Assembly (NCBI RefSeq): GCF_004365815.1
Contig: NZ_SODD01000003.1
Location: 82,286 to 114,285 of the forward strand
Reading direction: 5' to 3'
From: Breznakia blatticola
Lineage (GTDB): Bacteria > Bacillota_I > Bacilli_A > Erysipelotrichales > Erysipelotrichaceae
DNA: 32,000 nt
Shown: positions 4,003 through 23,711 of the stretch, in pieces
How positions within the stretch are numbered: position 1 is the first letter of the stretch
Layout: each line of letters starts with the position of its first letter
The notes under the pieces: model-generated
The model's database searches: none
What the model was told of the DNA's origin: nothing
Seen by the model: the letters and a program-made list of their open reading frames with translations, nothing else
Made by a program: the position numbers and the translations under genes

Positions 4003-5516
<1,514 letters not shown>

Positions 5517-5527
5517 CTATCTTTGGT

Positions 5528-7120
5528 TTATATTTCATTTTTCTCGTTATATGTAATCCATGTAATTATTGCAGTAACAACAGCTCCAACTACAACTGAT
5601 GCAATCATAAATATAACATTCATAGAATTCTCTCCTACAAATCCTGTCACAGTAAAGAATACTCCACCCATTACTATTTGATATGCAATAACCTTTGTTA
5701 ACGCAAGCACAATTGCTCCAGCAGCATTTCCAATCATTGCCGCAATTAATGGTGTTCTCAGTTTTAAATTTACACCAAATAGTGCAGGTTCAGTAACTCC
5801 TGCAACGATTGCAGTTACTGTGCTAGACATTGCATTTGTTTTTAGCTCACGATTCTTACTTTTTAGTGAGACGACTAATGTGGCAACACCTTGATTTGTA
5901 TTACTAATTACGATACATAACCATAAAAACGGTTCATACCCCAATGTTGCATACAATCCAAATACAACTGGTACAATCGCTGCATGCATACCAGTAATAA
6001 CCATAATTGGGTACAAGAATGCAAATAATACTATTGCAACAATTCCTGTTTTATCGTATAACCACATAATAAAATCAGATAAGTAAGTTCCTAATACTGA
6101 TCCAAGCGGTGCTAACACACACAATGTAAGTGGAATCATAACAAGAATTGTTAAAAATGGTACACTAATATCCTTAATTATTGCAGGAGAATGCTTTTCA
6201 ATAAACCTTTCTACATGTGACATCACAAATACTGCCATAATTGAAGGAAATAATGTTGATGCATATGATCCTGCATATACTGGTAATCCAAACAAAGATA
6301 ATTCAGTCCCTGAAGTTACATATGTAATAAATGTAGGTGAAATTAACATAGCACATAAGAACATAGCAATATAAATATTACTATTGAAACGTTTTGCAGC
6401 TGCAGCACCTACATAAATTGGCATGAAGTAAAATGCTGCGTCCGCTGCAAATGATAAAACTAAATATGTAGAACTTGTTTCTGTAATCAAAGGTGTATAA
6501 AGCAATAATATTAATAATACTTTTAATAACCCCGCAGCCACAAAAACATTGATCATAGGATATAAACAAGCTGATATAGTTGCAGTAAAATCAAGAAATT
6601 TCTCTTTAACCCCACTTTTCTTTTTAGCATCATTAACTTCTTCAATCATATCCTCTTTTTTAAAATCATAACTTCTGCAAATTGCGTCATAAACCTCACT
6701 AACAAATGGCCCAACAATTACTTGAAGTTGATTACCACTCCAATTGACACCAATAACTTCATTTATTGTTTTAATTTCTTCATCACTTACTAATGATTTA
6801 TTTTTAATTGTAAACCGCAACCTTGTAACACAGTGTGTAAAATAATTAACATTTTCTTTTCCACCAACAAGTGTAATGATCTTGTCAGCTAATTCACTAT
6901 AATTTTTAGACATATTTTTTTCCTCCGATTTTTTGGTATTGAAAGATATGATAACTCTGTTTCTTTTCATCTGAACACTTTCAATTGTTATCATTTCTTT
7001 AATTTTAAGAGAATTTACTAATCCAGCATCCTTAATAAAGACGTGTAACAGTTCATCTTTTTTTTCTGATTTAATGATATTTTCCTTACCACCTAATAAC
7101 TCTATTAATTCAATTTTCAT
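5528..7120 (-). CDS. bglP: PTS beta-glucoside EIIBC permease with an extra degenerate N-terminal EIIB-like domain
   Basis: 530 aa. The canonical EIIB (GGKENVNYFTHCVTRLRF, active Cys) starts at residue ~70 and is followed by a multi-TM EIIC. Residues 1-69 repeat the GGKEN fold pattern but lack the Cys. Strong RBSs precede both ATG 7120 and the in-frame ATG 6913. Confidence 0.85.
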   Translation of the reverse strand: MKIELIELLGGKENIIKSEKKDELLHVFIKDAGLVNSLKIKEMITIESVQMKRNRVIISFNTKKSEEKNMSKNYSELADKIITLVGGKENVNYFTHCVTRLRFTIKNKSLVSDEEIKTINEVIGVNWSGNQLQVIVGPFVSEVYDAICRSYDFKKEDMIEEVNDAKKKSGVKEKFLDFTATISACLYPMINVFVAAGLLKVLLILLLYTPLITETSSTYLVLSFAADAAFYFMPIYVGAAAAKRFNSNIYIAMFLCAMLISPTFITYVTSGTELSLFGLPVYAGSYASTLFPSIMAVFVMSHVERFIEKHSPAIIKDISVPFLTILVMIPLTLCVLAPLGSVLGTYLSDFIMWLYDKTGIVAIVLFAFLYPIMVITGMHAAIVPVVFGLYATLGYEPFLWLCIVISNTNQGVATLVVSLKSKNRELKTNAMSSTVTAIVAGVTEPALFGVNLKLRTPLIAAMIGNAAGAIVLALTKVIAYQIVMGGVFFTVTGFVGENSMNVIFMIASVVVGAVVTAIITWITYNEKNEI

Positions 7121-18154: not shown

Positions 18155-18583
18155 TTAATCATCTATAATTACTGTTTCTTCAGTTATTATTTGTTGTTTA
18201 TTTTGATCAGTATCACTAATGTATTGTGCACTAAAAAACACCATCATAAAAACATATAATAAAACGATCACTGCTAATGTAATACCAACAACTTTCCATA
18301 TGCGTCGTGAGCGTCGATTTTTAATTGCAAGTTGCTCATTTATTCTAGATAGTTGTATTGCTATATCATCCGCAGACTTTTCATTTTCAACTGATGCACC
18401 AAGCAATTCACTAACAGACACATCTAATATTTCTGCAAGACGAATTAATGTATCCGCATCTGGCACAGATAAGTTTTTCTCCCATTTTGAAATTGTTTGT
18501 CTGACTACATGAAGTCTGGTTGCTAATTCCTCTTGCGAAAAACCATTTTGCTTTCTAAGGTTTTTTAGATTCTCACTAAACAT
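18155..18583 (-). CDS. XRE-family HTH regulator with C-terminal transmembrane anchor
   Basis: N-terminal HTH_3 pattern LKNLRKQNGFSQEELATRLHVVRQTISKWEKNLSVPD. A hydrophobic segment WKVVGITLAVIVLLYVFMMVFF lies near the C-terminus. Confidence 0.85.
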   Translation of the reverse strand: MFSENLKNLRKQNGFSQEELATRLHVVRQTISKWEKNLSVPDADTLIRLAEILDVSVSELLGASVENEKSADDIAIQLSRINEQLAIKNRRSRRIWKVVGITLAVIVLLYVFMMVFFSAQYISDTDQNKQQIITEETVIIDD

Positions 18584-18775: not shown

Positions 18776-19003
18776 CTATTTCTTGAATTTATCTTTCAAT
18801 TCATCGATTTTGTCTTCAGCTGCATCTTTAACATCTCCAGCTTTATCTTTAACATCTTCACCGAAAGATTTCGCTTTATCTGCAACATCTTCACCAGCAT
18901 CTTTTACTTTATCAGCTGCTTCTTTTGCTTTGTCAGAAACATCTTTTCCAAAGTCTTCAGCTTTGTCTTTTAATTCATCTAATTTGTTTTTTAAGTCTGC
19001 CAT
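18776..19003 (-). CDS. Small D/K/A-rich repeat protein (LEA/hydrophilin- or CsbD-like stress protein)
   Basis: 75 aa. Strong RBS AGGAGGAAATATTT-ATG. Imperfect 7/11-residue repeats DKAxxFGxDVx. The plus-strand ORF 18756..19019 is its low-complexity antisense shadow. Confidence 0.7.
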   Translation of the reverse strand: MADLKNKLDELKDKAEDFGKDVSDKAKEAADKVKDAGEDVADKAKSFGEDVKDKAGDVKDAAEDKIDELKDKFKK

Positions 19004-19864: not shown

Positions 19865-19969
19865 AATCTACCTCTCTGTTATTCAAATATTGTAACACAA
19901 ATCTATTTTTTGGATTTTTTGATTTCTTAAAAGTGAAACCGCTTACTTCATTTTTCTTAATAAATCGTA

Positions 19970-20010
19970 TTGTGTTCAAGTAAAAATACCGATATAATGT
20001 GTCAAGACAC
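19970..20010 (+). promoter_or_regulatory. Promoter plus perfect palindromic operator upstream of the S-component gene
   Basis: TTGTGT (19970-75), 17 nt spacer, TATAAT (19993-98). Immediately after comes the 12-bp perfect palindrome GTGTCAAGACAC (19999-20010), covering the predicted +1. Confidence 0.55.
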
Positions 20011-20036
20011 TTATATTTACAGAAGGAGAATATATT

Positions 20037-20585
20037 ATGAATTCATCATCAAAAGCAATTCAAAAAATGGTTATATCAGCAATGCTAATTGCTGTAGGAA
20101 TTGTGATTCCTATGTTTTCACCAATTAAAGTTGTAATTGAACCAGCTTCATTTACATTAGCTAGTCATGTTGCCATCATGATTGGAATGTTTATTTCACC
20201 AGGAGTTACTGTTGCTGTCGCTATTGGTACAACAATTGGTTTCTTACTTGGCGGATTTCCAATTACCGTTGTTGCTAGAGCAGGTTCACACATCGTCTTT
20301 GCCTTACTAGGTGCTGTATATTTTGCTAAAAAACCAGAAGTTTTATACAACCCTACAAAATGTGTACTAGCATTCTTTGTACTATCATTAATTCATGCAA
20401 TTTGTGAAGTAATCGTTGTGCTTCCATTCTACTTAAATGGACAACCTGTCGATAACTTCTACTATGTTGTATTTGGTTTAGTTGGTGTAGGAACAGTGGT
20501 TCACTCAATGGTGGATTTCTTTATTGCAAGAGCTGTATATCAACTGATTCCACAAGCTAAAACTGCACGCACAAAAATTGCGTAA
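20037..20585 (+). CDS. ECF-transporter S-component-like membrane protein (substrate unknown; NiaX-like is a guess)
   Basis: 182 aa, about 5-6 TM segments, no signal peptide. Size and topology fit solitary vitamin-uptake S components. RBS AGAAGGAG. Confidence 0.55.
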   Translation: MNSSSKAIQKMVISAMLIAVGIVIPMFSPIKVVIEPASFTLASHVAIMIGMFISPGVTVAVAIGTTIGFLLGGFPITVVARAGSHIVFALLGAVYFAKKPEVLYNPTKCVLAFFVLSLIHAICEVIVVLPFYLNGQPVDNFYYVVFGLVGVGTVVHSMVDFFIARAVYQLIPQAKTARTKIA

Positions 20586-20590
20586 ATCAT

Positions 20591-20616
20591 ATCCCACATA
20601 TGTGGGATTTTTTTAT
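20591..20616 (+). terminator. Intrinsic terminator after the S-component gene
   Basis: ATCCCAC-ATAT-GTGGGAT hairpin followed by TTTTTTTATTT. Confidence 0.8.
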
Positions 20617-20639: not shown

Positions 20640-20647
20640 TGTATAAT
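20640..20647 (+). promoter_or_regulatory. Extended -10 promoter (TGTATAAT) of the PAP2-MazG-GIY-YIG/DUF2075 operon
   Basis: TGTATAAT at 20640-20647. The ATG at 20654 lies 6 nt after the -10 and has no RBS, so the mRNA may be leaderless. Confidence 0.45.
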
Positions 20648-20653
20648 ACATTT

Positions 20654-21475
20654 ATGAAACAAACATTACAAATTATGTTCAAGGAATATAAACTACAAAT
20701 CTTTGTCTTTCTGGTGTTACTAAGTATCTTCACAGTTTTTGATCAACAATTGTGTACACTGCTTTATCACCCGGGAAATATCTATGGTGCTTTCTTTGAG
20801 AAGTTTACTTACTTGCCTGGTTGCTACCTACTATTTCTAAGCACTACGATACTTTATGTACACTACTTCAAGACCAACAATAAAAAATTTCAATATTTAA
20901 CCATGCTTATGTGTACAGTATCCTTTTTTATTACTAGTTACTATTTCTATGAGGCACTTGCAGGTATTGGCATGGTATTACATATCATCCTATCATTGTG
21001 TATTATCTTTGCCTGTATTAAATGGAGGCAATTAGATGCATATGTCAAAACTGCTTGGATTGTTATTTTCACGATACTTGCTGCTTTGCTCACAGTTGAA
21101 CTCTTTAAGATGCTATGGGGTCGTGTTCGTCCATATGCAAATTTGGATAATTCAAGTTATTACACACCTTGGTTCGAATTGAACTTTAACGACTTTAAGA
21201 CCTATTTTGAAAATAGTGATACTACAAAATCATTTCCATCAGGTCACAGTAATTGGGCAACATTAACATTATGCTATTCATTCTACTTTAAGAAACATCG
21301 GAAAGTGGCAATTGCAACATCTGTTATCTATATATTACTAGTAACAACTTCAAGAGTAGTTTATGGAATGCATCATCCTAGCGATGTACTTTGCGGATGT
21401 GCAATTGCTTATACCTATTACTCAATTGCAAAACACAAAGTGAAACACTTTAAACAAACGGAGGTATCCATATGA
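20654..21475 (+). CDS. PAP2-superfamily membrane phosphatase
   Basis: All three PAP2 motifs are present: KMLWGRVRP, PSGHS, SRVVYGMHHPSD. Multiple TM segments. The track start at 20600 lies inside the upstream terminator, so I prefer ATG 20654 (20639 is also possible). Confidence 0.8.
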   Translation: MKQTLQIMFKEYKLQIFVFLVLLSIFTVFDQQLCTLLYHPGNIYGAFFEKFTYLPGCYLLFLSTTILYVHYFKTNNKKFQYLTMLMCTVSFFITSYYFYEALAGIGMVLHIILSLCIIFACIKWRQLDAYVKTAWIVIFTILAALLTVELFKMLWGRVRPYANLDNSSYYTPWFELNFNDFKTYFENSDTTKSFPSGHSNWATLTLCYSFYFKKHRKVAIATSVIYILLVTTSRVVYGMHHPSDVLCGCAIAYTYYSIAKHKVKHFKQTEVSI

Positions 21476-21789
21476 ATGAAATCATGGAAAGACTAAGAAA
21501 ATTCAATCAGGATCGGGATTGGGATCAATATCATCAACCAGCTAATCTAGCAAAGTCTATTGTGATTGAAAGTGCTGAATTACTTGAGTGTTTTCAGTGG
21601 GACAATGATAACTTCAATAAACAGCATGTTGCTGAAGAACTTGCAGATGTTCTATGCTATGCATTTCAATTGGCAGATAGTTTACATATGAACATTACAG
21701 AAATCATGAATGATAAAATAGATAAAAATGCAATTAAATATCCAATTGAAAAAGCGAAAGGTAGTTCGAAGAAGTACAATGAGCTCTAG
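21472..21789 (+). CDS. MazG-like nucleoside-triphosphate pyrophosphohydrolase (small all-alpha, DCTPP1/YpjD-like)
   Basis: 105 aa. Acidic metal-binding helices IESAELLE and EELADVL. The FNQDRDWDQYH N-terminus is typical of the MazG-like family. RBS GGAGG. The ATG overlaps the PAP2 stop (ATGA). Confidence 0.8.
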   Translation: MNEIMERLRKFNQDRDWDQYHQPANLAKSIVIESAELLECFQWDNDNFNKQHVAEELADVLCYAFQLADSLHMNITEIMNDKIDKNAIKYPIEKAKGSSKKYNEL

Positions 21790-23461
21790 TAAGATCAAAG
21801 TAAATCAATATGCGTTTACAATGGATTCCGTAAATGCATTAACAAATAATGCATTTATGAAAAACTGGCCAATTGTATACGTATTAAATGATGATCATAA
21901 TGTGTATATAGGTGAAACTTCCAATGCAATTACACGTATGCAGACACACTTAAAAAGTGATGATAAAAACTATCTAAAGCAAATGAATATTATTACAGAT
22001 GAAGAATTTCATAAATCAGCAACACTTCACTTAGAATCCTTGCTTATTGAATACATGAGTGCAGATACTCATTTTGATACGATCATCAATGGAAATACCG
22101 GACAAAGCCACATGTATTTTCAAAAAGATCATTACGCTCATAAATTTGAGGAATTATGGAGTATCCTAAAAAAGAAACACTTGGCAAATGAACGAATTGA
22201 CCAAATTCGCAATAAAGATTTATTCAAATTTTCACCATATAAGTCATTAACAGAAGATCAATTTGGTACTGTGGATGTTATATTGCAAGACTTAGCACAA
22301 CGTACAAAACATCAAGAACCTCAAACATACCTTATTCAAGGAGAAGCAGGAACTGGAAAAACGGTTTTAGCCATTTATTTAGTTAAACTACTTACCGATT
22401 TATTTGCTGATCGTTTATCACTTGAAGGATTTGCAAGCGAAGAAGTTAATGCACTTAAAACGCTTAAACAAGAAAACAGATCACTCAAAGTTGGTTTTGT
22501 TGTACCTATGTCATCATTACGTAGAACTATTCGTAACGTATTTAAAGACATTCAAGGATTACAAGCAAATATGGTAATTACACCATCACAAGCAACCAAA
22601 GAGAATTTTGATATTCTAATCGTTGATGAAGCACATCGTTTAAAACGAAGAAAAAACCTAACGGGTTATGGTGCCTTCGATGCAACAAATAAACGTTTAG
22701 GTTTAGATGATAATGGAACTGAACTTGACTGGATTATGAAATCTTCAAAATATCAAATTCTGTTTTATGATAAGAATCAATCGGTTCGTCCAACAGATGT
22801 TCGACACGATGAATTCAAGAAAATTATAAATAGAGAAGACCATTTAGATCTCTTCTTATTCTCACAAATGCGTGTTATTGGTGGAGATGTTTATGTTAAA
22901 TACATCAAAGATATCTTCAACAACAACCATCCAAAACCAAAAGAATTTGATGCTTATGATGTTTGTCTATTTGATGATATTGACATCATGATTCAAGCAA
23001 TCAAATCCAAGAATGAAGAACTTGGACTTTGTCGTACAGTTAGCGGATATGCATGGGATTGGGTAAGTAAGAAAGATCAATCCAAACATGATATTACAAT
23101 TGATAACCATTCCTATATATGGAACACTGTAAACGAGGATTGGGTGAACTCAAAAAACTCCATCAATGAAATTGGTTGTATACATACAATTCAAGGATAT
23201 GATTTAAACTATGCTGCGATCATTCTTGGAGAAGATATTAAATACGATCCTGTTCTTCAAAAAATCTATACAGATAAGCAAAACTTTTATGATAAAAAAG
23301 CAAAAGCTGGTGTAACCTCTGATAAAGAAATTGCTTCATACATTATAAATGCTTACATAACGATGTTAACACGTGGAATCCGTGGAACATATCTGTATGT
23401 GTGTGATAAAAACTTACGTGAATATCTTGCTACATTCTTTCCAACATATATAAACAAATAA
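21779..23461 (+). CDS. GIY-YIG nuclease domain fused to a DUF2075-type (Schlafen-helicase-like) DEAH P-loop ATPase
   Basis: GIY-YIG part: WPIVYVL..VYIGET..AITRMQTHL..HLESLLIEY. ATPase part: Walker A GEAGTGKT, Walker B ILIVDEAHRL, C-terminal IHTIQGYDLNYAAIILG and TRGIRGTYLYV. The start at 21779 overlaps the MazG gene by 11 nt (the track ORF starts at 21728). Confidence 0.8.
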   Translation: MSSSKIKVNQYAFTMDSVNALTNNAFMKNWPIVYVLNDDHNVYIGETSNAITRMQTHLKSDDKNYLKQMNIITDEEFHKSATLHLESLLIEYMSADTHFDTIINGNTGQSHMYFQKDHYAHKFEELWSILKKKHLANERIDQIRNKDLFKFSPYKSLTEDQFGTVDVILQDLAQRTKHQEPQTYLIQGEAGTGKTVLAIYLVKLLTDLFADRLSLEGFASEEVNALKTLKQENRSLKVGFVVPMSSLRRTIRNVFKDIQGLQANMVITPSQATKENFDILIVDEAHRLKRRKNLTGYGAFDATNKRLGLDDNGTELDWIMKSSKYQILFYDKNQSVRPTDVRHDEFKKIINREDHLDLFLFSQMRVIGGDVYVKYIKDIFNNNHPKPKEFDAYDVCLFDDIDIMIQAIKSKNEELGLCRTVSGYAWDWVSKKDQSKHDITIDNHSYIWNTVNEDWVNSKNSINEIGCIHTIQGYDLNYAAIILGEDIKYDPVLQKIYTDKQNFYDKKAKAGVTSDKEIASYIINAYITMLTRGIRGTYLYVCDKNLREYLATFFPTYINK

Positions 23462-23464
23462 AGA

Positions 23465-23518
23465 AACAGTCTCCAACATTGTATGACTCTCAAGTTGTAC
23501 GATAAGGACTGTTTTTTT
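23465..23518 (+). terminator. Putative terminator of the three-gene operon
   Basis: AACAGTC ... GACTGTT stem with a long, partly structured loop, followed by T7. Confidence 0.45.
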
Positions 23519-23711
23519 GTCTCGATTTTTGTTTGCAGAACAATCATAACTACTTATTTTATGATTACTTCAAATTCTTTTCCTACCCATTTTTGCTTAT
23601 ATAATTCATAACCAAAACAAATAATCATAAAACTAACATATTGTTCATGTATATTGATGAATCGTATACCCATGAATGATAAAATAGAAAAGGACATAGA
23701 GGAGGACTAGC

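Follow-up and report, generated by a model that had tools for sequence, protein, structure and literature searches.

Two adjacent genes of Breznakia blatticola, one encoding a small MazG-like nucleotide pyrophosphohydrolase and the other a nuclease-helicase in which a GIY-YIG domain precedes a Schlafen-group-3/DUF2075 helicase, constitute what is almost certainly a real, mobile and near-obligate two-gene module. The pair lies within a 32,000-nt stretch of contig NZ_SODD01000003.1 (positions 82,286 to 114,285 of the forward strand; assembly GCF_004365815.1), hereafter the window, where it directly follows a gene for a membrane phosphatase of the PAP2 family. The coordinates given below refer to the window sequence and to an open reading frame (ORF) map of these three same-strand genes, which are located between two terminators. 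An initial annotation of this stretch had tentatively grouped all three genes into one system. Its description of the operon anatomy and of the encoded domains is firmly confirmed; its grouping is revised here, with the predicted deoxynucleoside triphosphate (dNTP) pyrophosphatase best read as an obligatory partner in an undescribed, Nhi-like variant of defense and the PAP2 gene, with high confidence, as a resident neighbor.

Conservation of the two-gene pair

The distribution of the pair was established from a scan of one genome per species across 185,579 species-level genomes, which yielded at least 570 loci with relatives of the nuclease-helicase, and gene neighborhoods were compared for the best 80 of these (42-49% identity). 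The 80 loci derive from Bacillota, Patescibacteria/CPR (candidate phyla radiation), Bacteroidota, Gammaproteobacteria and other groups, and at 77 of them the nuclease-helicase gene has a MazG-like companion. The partner is encoded directly upstream on the same strand at 73 loci, upstream with one gene between at one, directly downstream at one, and adjacent in divergent orientation at two; two further loci are uninformative due to contig ends, and a single locus (L065) truly lacks the MazG-like gene. In 71 of the 74 junctions that could be measured, the distance from the MazG stop to the start of the helicase gene is between -23 and +20 nt. Pairwise identities of the two proteins are also correlated (Mantel r = 0.53, a value reached by 0 of 2000 permutations). 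At locus L007, an extra 376-aa gene with no assigned function (4840-5970) lies between the MazG-like and DUF2075 genes.

The pairing extends well beyond close relatives, as plasmid pIS56-233 of B. thuringiensis carries it at 32% identity (annotated as a 'nucleotide pyrophosphohydrolase' followed by a 'DUF2075 domain-containing protein') and it is also seen in five viral contigs. Clustered at 50% identity, matches to the nuclease-helicase with E <= 1e-30 fall into 395 groups. The neighborhoods share no third gene: the largest cluster of neighboring genes is present at only 7 of 78 loci. Functional coupling of nucleotide hydrolysis to the nuclease-helicase appears well supported because the linkage of the two genes is so strongly conserved, and the near-obligate presence of the partner suggests a two-component system. 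The initial annotation had proposed a neighborhood census as the check on its grouping: the MazG-like linkage that it anticipated is borne out, while the PAP2 gene is found at none of the 80 genome loci beyond the closest relatives.

The predicted pyrophosphatase and nuclease-helicase

The second gene (21472..21789, + strand) encodes a predicted DCTPP1/RS21-C6-like all-alpha (d)NTP pyrophosphohydrolase of 105 aa that matches the MazG-like family PF12643 at 4.6e-19, with a score of 68.9 bits against a cut-off of 27. Sequence matches in the PDB include an archaeal pyrophosphatase (4qgp, 8e-18) and DCTPP1 (6sqw and 2a3q, 3.6e-17). Across 81 partner proteins the ExxE...ExxD acids E33, E36, E39, E56 and D59 are 100% conserved and align to E63, E66, E69, E95 and D98 of mouse RS21-C6, of which E63, E66, E95 and D98 are reported to be the metal-binding acids in the RS21-C6 structure. 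The positions aligned to mouse W47, W73 and Y102 are also conserved, and W17, H21, W43, K82, Y90, K101 and Y102 are invariant or nearly so. Because the catalytic and metal-binding residues are invariant, the partner appears to be under selection as an enzyme. Homology to DCTPP1/RS21-C6 (XTP3-TPA) and to 4qgp spans the whole 105 aa with the metal-binding acids conserved. DCTPP1, however, is a housekeeping pool sanitizer, whereas the gene-2 protein is a minimal bacterial form that is operon-coupled to a nuclease-helicase and horizontally mobile. DCTPP1 and RS21-C6 prefer 5-methyl-dCTP as pool sanitizers (PMC10742078).

A reciprocal census of the 80 closest metagenomic MazG-like relatives gave 70 informative loci and 10 that were not, with a DUF2075 gene at 38 (downstream at 10, upstream at 19 and elsewhere at 9) and none at the other 32. 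The neighbors of these 32 are mixed, including GH88, ADH and DUF969 genes as well as Abi_2, PLD-ResIII and a Schlafen AlbA_2 protein, and the idea of a MazG-like clade dedicated to DUF2075 partners was therefore rejected. Judged from gene content, the dependence is asymmetric, such that the nuclease-helicase would need the pyrophosphatase and not the reverse. At locus L098 (2341-4301), the gene after a close MazG-like relative of 178 aa encodes a Schlafen AlbA_2-domain protein in place of the DUF2075 helicase; MazG-like genes therefore adjoin both halves of the eukaryotic Schlafen architecture.

This asymmetry bears on whether the pair might be a toxin-antitoxin (TA)-like or addiction cassette, in which a toxic nuclease-helicase would be neutralized by the pyrophosphatase, either through binding or through removal of a nucleotide cofactor or activator, and the cassette would stabilize mobile DNA with or without abortive infection. 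Such a cassette would fit the tight coupling of a small upstream gene to a large nuclease gene, the finding that the nuclease-helicase almost never occurs without its partner while relatives of the partner often stand alone, and the presence of the pair on plasmids and beside other TA genes. We nevertheless consider it improbable, as the invariance of all pyrophosphatase catalytic residues argues that it acts as an enzyme and not by steric means alone, the two genes can occur in either order (DUF2075 first in the 19 metagenome loci and at L013 and L088/L089), and L065 keeps an intact nuclease-helicase gene with no partner.

The third gene (21779..23461, + strand) encodes the putative effector, a nuclease-helicase of 560 aa whose assignment draws on Pfam, invariant residues and an AlphaFold2 (AF2) model. 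The helicase portion (residues 182-543, nt 22322-23407) is of the Schlafen-group-3/DUF2075 superfamily 1 (SF1) type and matches SLFN-g3_helicase/DUF2075 (PF09848) at 2e-65; its Walker A motif (G191-T195, GxGTGKT) and DExH box (D283-E284-x-H286) are invariant in an alignment of 24 homologues. The full-length AF2 model has a predicted local distance difference test (pLDDT) score of 86, and its top solved structures in Foldseek are SLFN11, Dna2, Upf1, RecD2 and Dda, corresponding to the SF1B helicase fold. The N-terminal GIY-YIG domain (residues ~28-110, nt 21860-22108) scores 20.2 bits for PF01541 against a cut-off of 22.6 (E 7e-4) in the window protein. Among homologues, 22 of 24 match at E <= 0.01 (best 9e-6) and some long relatives exceed the cut-off. 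Residues Y34, Y43, G45, E46, R53, H57, E86 and N104 of this domain are invariant in the 24-homologue alignment, and the full-length model places strands at 28-37, 41-49 and 68-73 and helices at 50-59 and 79-95 with a pLDDT of 85-93, in keeping with the beta-beta-alpha-beta-alpha core of the GIY-YIG superfamily. When the first 140 residues were modeled with no alignment, the pLDDT was 39, of no use for a fold search, and a PDB sequence search with the same 140 aa had no hits up to E <= 10, so that Pfam, the invariant residues and the full-length model are the basis of the GIY-YIG call. Pfam scans of the window protein and the 24 homologues reported no PD-(D/E)XK family.

The architecture is elaborated in part of the family, as the best 150 cluster representatives include 20 with lengths of 669-776 aa, and nine of ten such long relatives tested carry a C-terminal Peptidase_S24 domain of the LexA/UmuD-like type. 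Homologues with this domain are P0057, P0119, P0124, P0126, P0128, P0131, P0134, P0138, P0149, P0166 and P0184; the MazG-like partner is retained beside at least one S24-fused variant, and one long relative, P0153, has an N-terminal HSDR_N domain. S24 domains self-cleave on RecA filaments formed on single-stranded DNA (ssDNA), and their presence suggests that sensing of ssDNA or DNA damage may regulate part of the GIY-YIG-DUF2075 family. A candidate DUF2075-MazG fusion ORF (L168, 2642-4273) was rejected as a true fusion, since a C-truncated helicase joins an N-truncated MazG at a YDWDQFH microhomology; the ORF probably arose through deletion or faulty assembly. On the contig that encodes P0057 (ENA ERZ1426827), a small island comprising a 267-aa gene, the MazG-like gene, the DUF2075-S24 gene, three unknown genes and a NERD gene sits inside a ribosomal-protein operon, with L2 on one side and S19 on the other.

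The PAP2 gene and the anatomy of the operon

The first gene of the unit (20654..21475, + strand) encodes an integral-membrane phosphatase of the PAP2 family with 273 aa (Pfam PAP2 5.7e-22; 78.3 bits against a cut-off of 27.2), and its translation contains all three acid-phosphatase motifs, KX6RP, PSGH and SRX5HX3D, in the forms KMLWGRVRP, PSGH and SRVVYGMHHPSD. Together with the domains of the two following genes, this upholds the initial domain calls. PAP2 enzymes are integral-membrane lipid phosphatases, and the protein is weakly similar to PgpB and SepP. Its homologues form two clusters only among 5.8 billion proteins. The PAP2 gene and the gene for a 182-aa membrane protein that precedes it lie beside the pair solely in the relatives at 98% and 74% identity; outside these closest relatives, PAP2 is missing from all 80 genome loci and all 80 metagenome loci.

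A closely related strain without the pair, Erysipelotrichaceae bacterium MTC7 (L091), defines the boundary of the insertion. MTC7 keeps the order Y_phosphatase3 ... 182-aa gene - PAP2 seen in the window, and its PAP2 gene ends with its own hairpin and T-run terminator, after which unrelated genes follow. Compared with the pair-bearing contig L002, the MTC7 sequence is 98.9% identical at the DNA level until approximately 37 nt before the PAP2 stop, where homology is abruptly lost. The stretch specific to pair-bearing strains starts just upstream of a GGAGG ribosome-binding site for the MazG-like gene (21460..21464, + strand, inside the PAP2 3' end and 7 nt before the MazG ATG), and junction alignment places this site within the sequence that differs from the pair-less strain. 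Because the census finds PAP2 only in the closest relatives and a near-identical strain without the pair retains it, PAP2 is placed outside the module: the pair is very probably an accessory two-gene cassette attached at the 3' end of PAP2, a resident, lineage-specific gene. The cassette would have replaced the last ~37 nt of PAP2 together with the PAP2 terminator.

A true three-component system, the grouping first proposed for this locus, would have PAP2 work with the pyrophosphatase and nuclease-helicase, for example by dephosphorylating dNMP products or by sensing the envelope. It can call on the ATGA coupling and the common promoter and terminator in the window and the 74% relative, and there is a published analogy in the phosphatase-augmented, NTP-cleaving effector of PUA-Calcineurin-CE/MazG plus HAD (bioRxiv 10.64898/2026.01.15.699771). 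The association is nonetheless not conserved, PAP2 being missing from 80 of 80 more distant loci and its homologues being confined to the two clusters. Moreover, the near-identical pair-less strain keeps both PAP2, with its own terminator, and the upstream membrane gene. The lipid-phosphatase character of the family, to which the weak PgpB and SepP matches point, likewise speaks against a shared role, and we regard a three-component system as very improbable. The locus carries a lesson for annotation, in that tight operon structure can mislead and PAP2 should not be labeled as part of the module.

The anatomy of the unit agrees with what had been described for it. Upstream, the intrinsic terminator of the 182-aa membrane-protein gene (20591..20615, + strand) consists of a hairpin at 20591-20608, with a 7-bp stem that includes four GC pairs, and a T run behind it; its folding energy is -10.3 kcal/mol (z = -2.5), and base changes in the stem at the orthologous loci L002 and L091 compensate each other. 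The three-gene unit is shielded from upstream transcription by this terminator. The extended -10 element TGTATAAT (20640..20647, + strand; TATAAT at 20642-20647) is not above chance as a motif, with two occurrences in the AT-rich window against 3.9 expected. It is supported instead by conservation, because the 15-nt block GAAATCATGTATAAT is invariant in the window, L002 and L091 while its flanks diverge, the orthologous regions being ~75% identical. A sigma-70 scan did not call the PAP2 promoter, which lacks a good -35 element. We conclude that TGTATAAT is the promoter of the PAP2 gene and that it probably also drives the whole three-gene unit in the Erysipelotrichaceae lineage of the window. 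The PAP2 ATG at 20654, invariant in L002 and L091, is only 6 nt past the -10 element, which leaves no possibility of a Shine-Dalgarno sequence, and on account of this spacing the PAP2 gene is probably translated from a leaderless mRNA. Alternative PAP2 starts at 20640 and 20600 were rejected in favor of the conserved ATG.

Downstream of this start, the three reading frames are closely interlocked. The PAP2 and MazG-like genes overlap by ATGA (21472-21475), and the ATG of the third gene at 21779 overlaps the MazG-like gene, whose stop is at 21787-21789, by 11 nt. The unit is closed by an intrinsic terminator (23458..23520, + strand) with a long hairpin and a U7 tail, the T7-tailed hairpin of the initial annotation, which folds at -24.5 kcal/mol (z = -5.1), a value equaled by 0 of 200 shuffles. 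As there is no space for a promoter of its own, the pair presumably relies on that of PAP2, and co-transcription from the PAP2 promoter is plausible in the window's lineage. The pair would then be expressed through read-through and translational coupling, with PAP2 as a bystander.

The 182-aa membrane gene (20037-20585) matches no Pfam family, and its one similarity is a weak one, to a folate-family energy-coupling factor (ECF) transporter S component (TIGR04518, 2.7e-4). Every relative keeps it in synteny with PAP2. Upstream of it there is no sign of a riboswitch, and an Rfam search of the window returned no riboswitch and no other RNA family. Both MTC7 (L091 1504-9098) and L002 have a type I restriction-modification (R-M) system inserted between the Y_phosphatase3 and 182-aa membrane genes, which in MTC7 includes a phage-type integrase and two HsdS genes and resembles a specificity shufflon. 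The window, compared over 19865-20036, has no such insertion, and the same spot is therefore a variable hotspot. Base composition was unusable as an island signal, the GC content showing only a slight dip to 0.31-0.33 against 0.36-0.39 in the transketolase genes. Further upstream, a gene on the - strand (18155-18583) encodes an HTH/XRE (helix-turn-helix) repressor-like protein with an RstR-family match (4e-17) and a C-terminal hydrophobic segment, and adjoins a gene for a 75-aa lysine/aspartate-rich repeat protein (18776-19003), and L001 has both in conserved form.

Mobility, kinship with known systems and possible function

The family is found on 108 plasmids and is rare in phage genomes (4 of 50,697 records), and presence or absence differs between strains, as L002 has the pair and L091 does not. 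When the 150 genes immediately flanking the pair at 78 loci were compared with PADLOC at E <= 1e-10, they matched 118 PADLOC families. Families seen repeatedly, in Pfam or PADLOC, are restriction enzymes of the type IV and methyl-directed kinds, DpnI, Mrr, MrcB_N-NucS, PLD-helicase-DUF3427, type I restriction endonucleases and Cas3, along with ZorD-like, SoFic, PemK, SocA/Panacea and NYN proteins and the PADLOC candidates PDC-S02, S04, S07, S24 and S41. A type I R-M system lies immediately next to the block in the 74% relative. This neighborhood and distribution pattern is typical of mobile defense genes. The commonest neighbor of the pair is a small NUDIX pyrophosphohydrolase (7 of 78 loci, L005, L015, L042 and L051 among them), also present on the B. 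thuringiensis plasmid (L090 959-1342). It matches the candidate PDC-S07 (2.8e-51) and would add another nucleotide hydrolase to the islands that hold the pair.

The same observations can be weighed for a module of DNA repair or house-cleaning. There the DCTPP1-like enzyme would clear non-canonical dNTPs and the GIY-YIG helicase, acting in the manner of UvrC/Slx1, would process DNA carrying them or other lesions, with the S24 variants wired to RecA/SOS. GIY-YIG is the nuclease fold of UvrC/Slx1, which lends this proposal support, as do the S24 domains in nine of ten long relatives, the NUDIX pyrophosphohydrolases nearby, the housekeeping flanks of the window, and the homology with conserved pocket residues to DCTPP1, a known pool sanitizer along with RS21-C6 (PMC10742078). 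The patchy spread of the pair across phyla at 43-49% identity is, however, atypical of core repair, and so are its plasmid location, its strain-level presence or absence, and its hypervariable neighborhoods dominated by restriction, Abi and TA genes; the recurrent NUDIX neighbor is itself a defense candidate (PDC-S07). We judge a repair role unlikely.

The nuclease-helicase is a distant relative of the Nhi and AbiO defense helicases. Nhi of S. epidermidis (SERP2475) is a validated single-protein defense in which a PD-(D/E)XK nuclease is joined to a DUF2075 helicase and which degrades phage replication intermediates (bioRxiv 10.1101/776245), and the name 'Nhi-like' was given by Millman et al. 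2022 to an unrelated protein of the same architecture. Like Nhi, the window protein joins a nuclease at its N terminus to a DUF2075/Schlafen-type SF1 helicase, here with intact ATPase motifs, and both belong to a mobile or plasmid-borne setting. It differs in that its nuclease is GIY-YIG instead of PD-(D/E)XK and that its family is nearly always encoded with a DCTPP1-like pyrophosphatase, whereas Nhi is a single protein. The PADLOC Nhi profile (PDLC02372) gave no match to the window protein at E <= 0.01. Relatives match Nhi weakly (1e-9 to 1e-13, profile positions 171-376 of 470), with Nhi and AbiO both aligned over the helicase core only, and the window nuclease-helicase itself has weak matches to AbiO, PDC-S14 (N-terminal) and PDC-S41. 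Since the window protein has no Nhi match, its relatives match in the helicase core only and no literature link was found, we place the pair with the nuclease-helicase kind of system without filing it as a member of Nhi.

Two further comparisons are informative. The helicase belongs to the same Pfam family, PF09848, as Schlafen group 3 proteins (SLFN11, SLFN5 and SLFN13), and SLFN11 is the top structural match, with a TM-score of 0.36 to the AF2 model that is low because the helicase half alone aligns. The eukaryotic Schlafens are antiviral and replication-stress effectors; the window protein, unlike them, has a GIY-YIG DNA nuclease instead of an AlbA_2/Schlafen-core RNase domain. Nucleotide-depletion defenses (dCTP deaminase, dGTPase and PUA-Calcineurin-CE/MazG-HAD) likewise place a (d)NTP-destroying enzyme in an immune module, and a MazG-like effector variant has been described in the PUA-Cal-HAD family (bioRxiv 10.64898/2026.01.15.699771). 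The pair studied here, in contrast, has no sequence relationship to these systems and contains neither PUA nor HAD, and its pyrophosphatase is paired with a nuclease-helicase instead of being the sole effector. Neither the MazG-like protein of the window nor its counterpart on the B. thuringiensis plasmid is assigned a family by PADLOC, and the pair as such is absent from PADLOC 2.0. GIY-YIG-DUF2075 fusions are mentioned in passing in a restriction-enzyme survey, and the DefensePredictor paper lists MazG beside a MazG-C kinase domain and nucleotide-modification domains. The literature searched contained no description of the pair and no paper linking a DUF2075/Schlafen-type helicase with a MazG or DCTPP1-like partner.

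Taken together, we favor, with moderate confidence, a role for the pair as an anti-phage or anti-mobile-DNA defense module of the nuclease-helicase (Nhi-like) kind. We infer the defense function, and with it the pyrophosphatase substrate, a physical complex and co-transcription, and several observations weigh against this assignment. Defense is read from sequence and context for every member of the family, and the window proteins match no PADLOC model at family level. Among the closest MazG-like relatives, 32 of 70 loci have no DUF2075 gene and some of these adjoin ordinary metabolic genes. The S24 domain, present in about one in eight relatives, suits a DNA-damage response or SOS-linked repair equally well as the sensing of phage replication. 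The tally of defense-type neighbors is qualitative and carries no background correction, and in the window itself the flanks are housekeeping genes (transketolase, Trp synthase and phosphatases) with no defense island.

If the pair does act in defense, a mechanism can be sketched in which the ATP-driven helicase would load onto foreign replication intermediates and the GIY-YIG domain would cut them, an action on phage replication intermediates that is borrowed from Nhi. The co-translated pyrophosphatase would hydrolyze dCTP-type, possibly base-modified, dNTPs, and this hydrolysis might deprive phage DNA synthesis of precursors, 'de-modify' it, or else serve as a gate on the nuclease-helicase. 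Any such specific division of labor between the two enzymes is tentative. Also speculative is a complete two-gene immune system in which the pyrophosphatase selectively destroys either dCTP or the modified pyrimidine dNTPs that phages make, such as hm-dCTP and hm-dUTP, the helicase then degrades stalled or 'unmasked' phage intermediates, and a subset of systems is triggered by RecA-stimulated S24 self-cleavage; we put this forward as a doubtful but specific possibility.

Should the pair prove to be a defense system, it would represent a new architecture of nuclease-helicase immunity that joins nucleotide-pool attack to nucleic-acid degradation, two strategies that have so far been described separately. 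Since each of its proteins has a human counterpart (DCTPP1 for one, the SLFN11-type helicase for the other), the bacterial pair could also inform how Schlafen proteins recognize replication stress.

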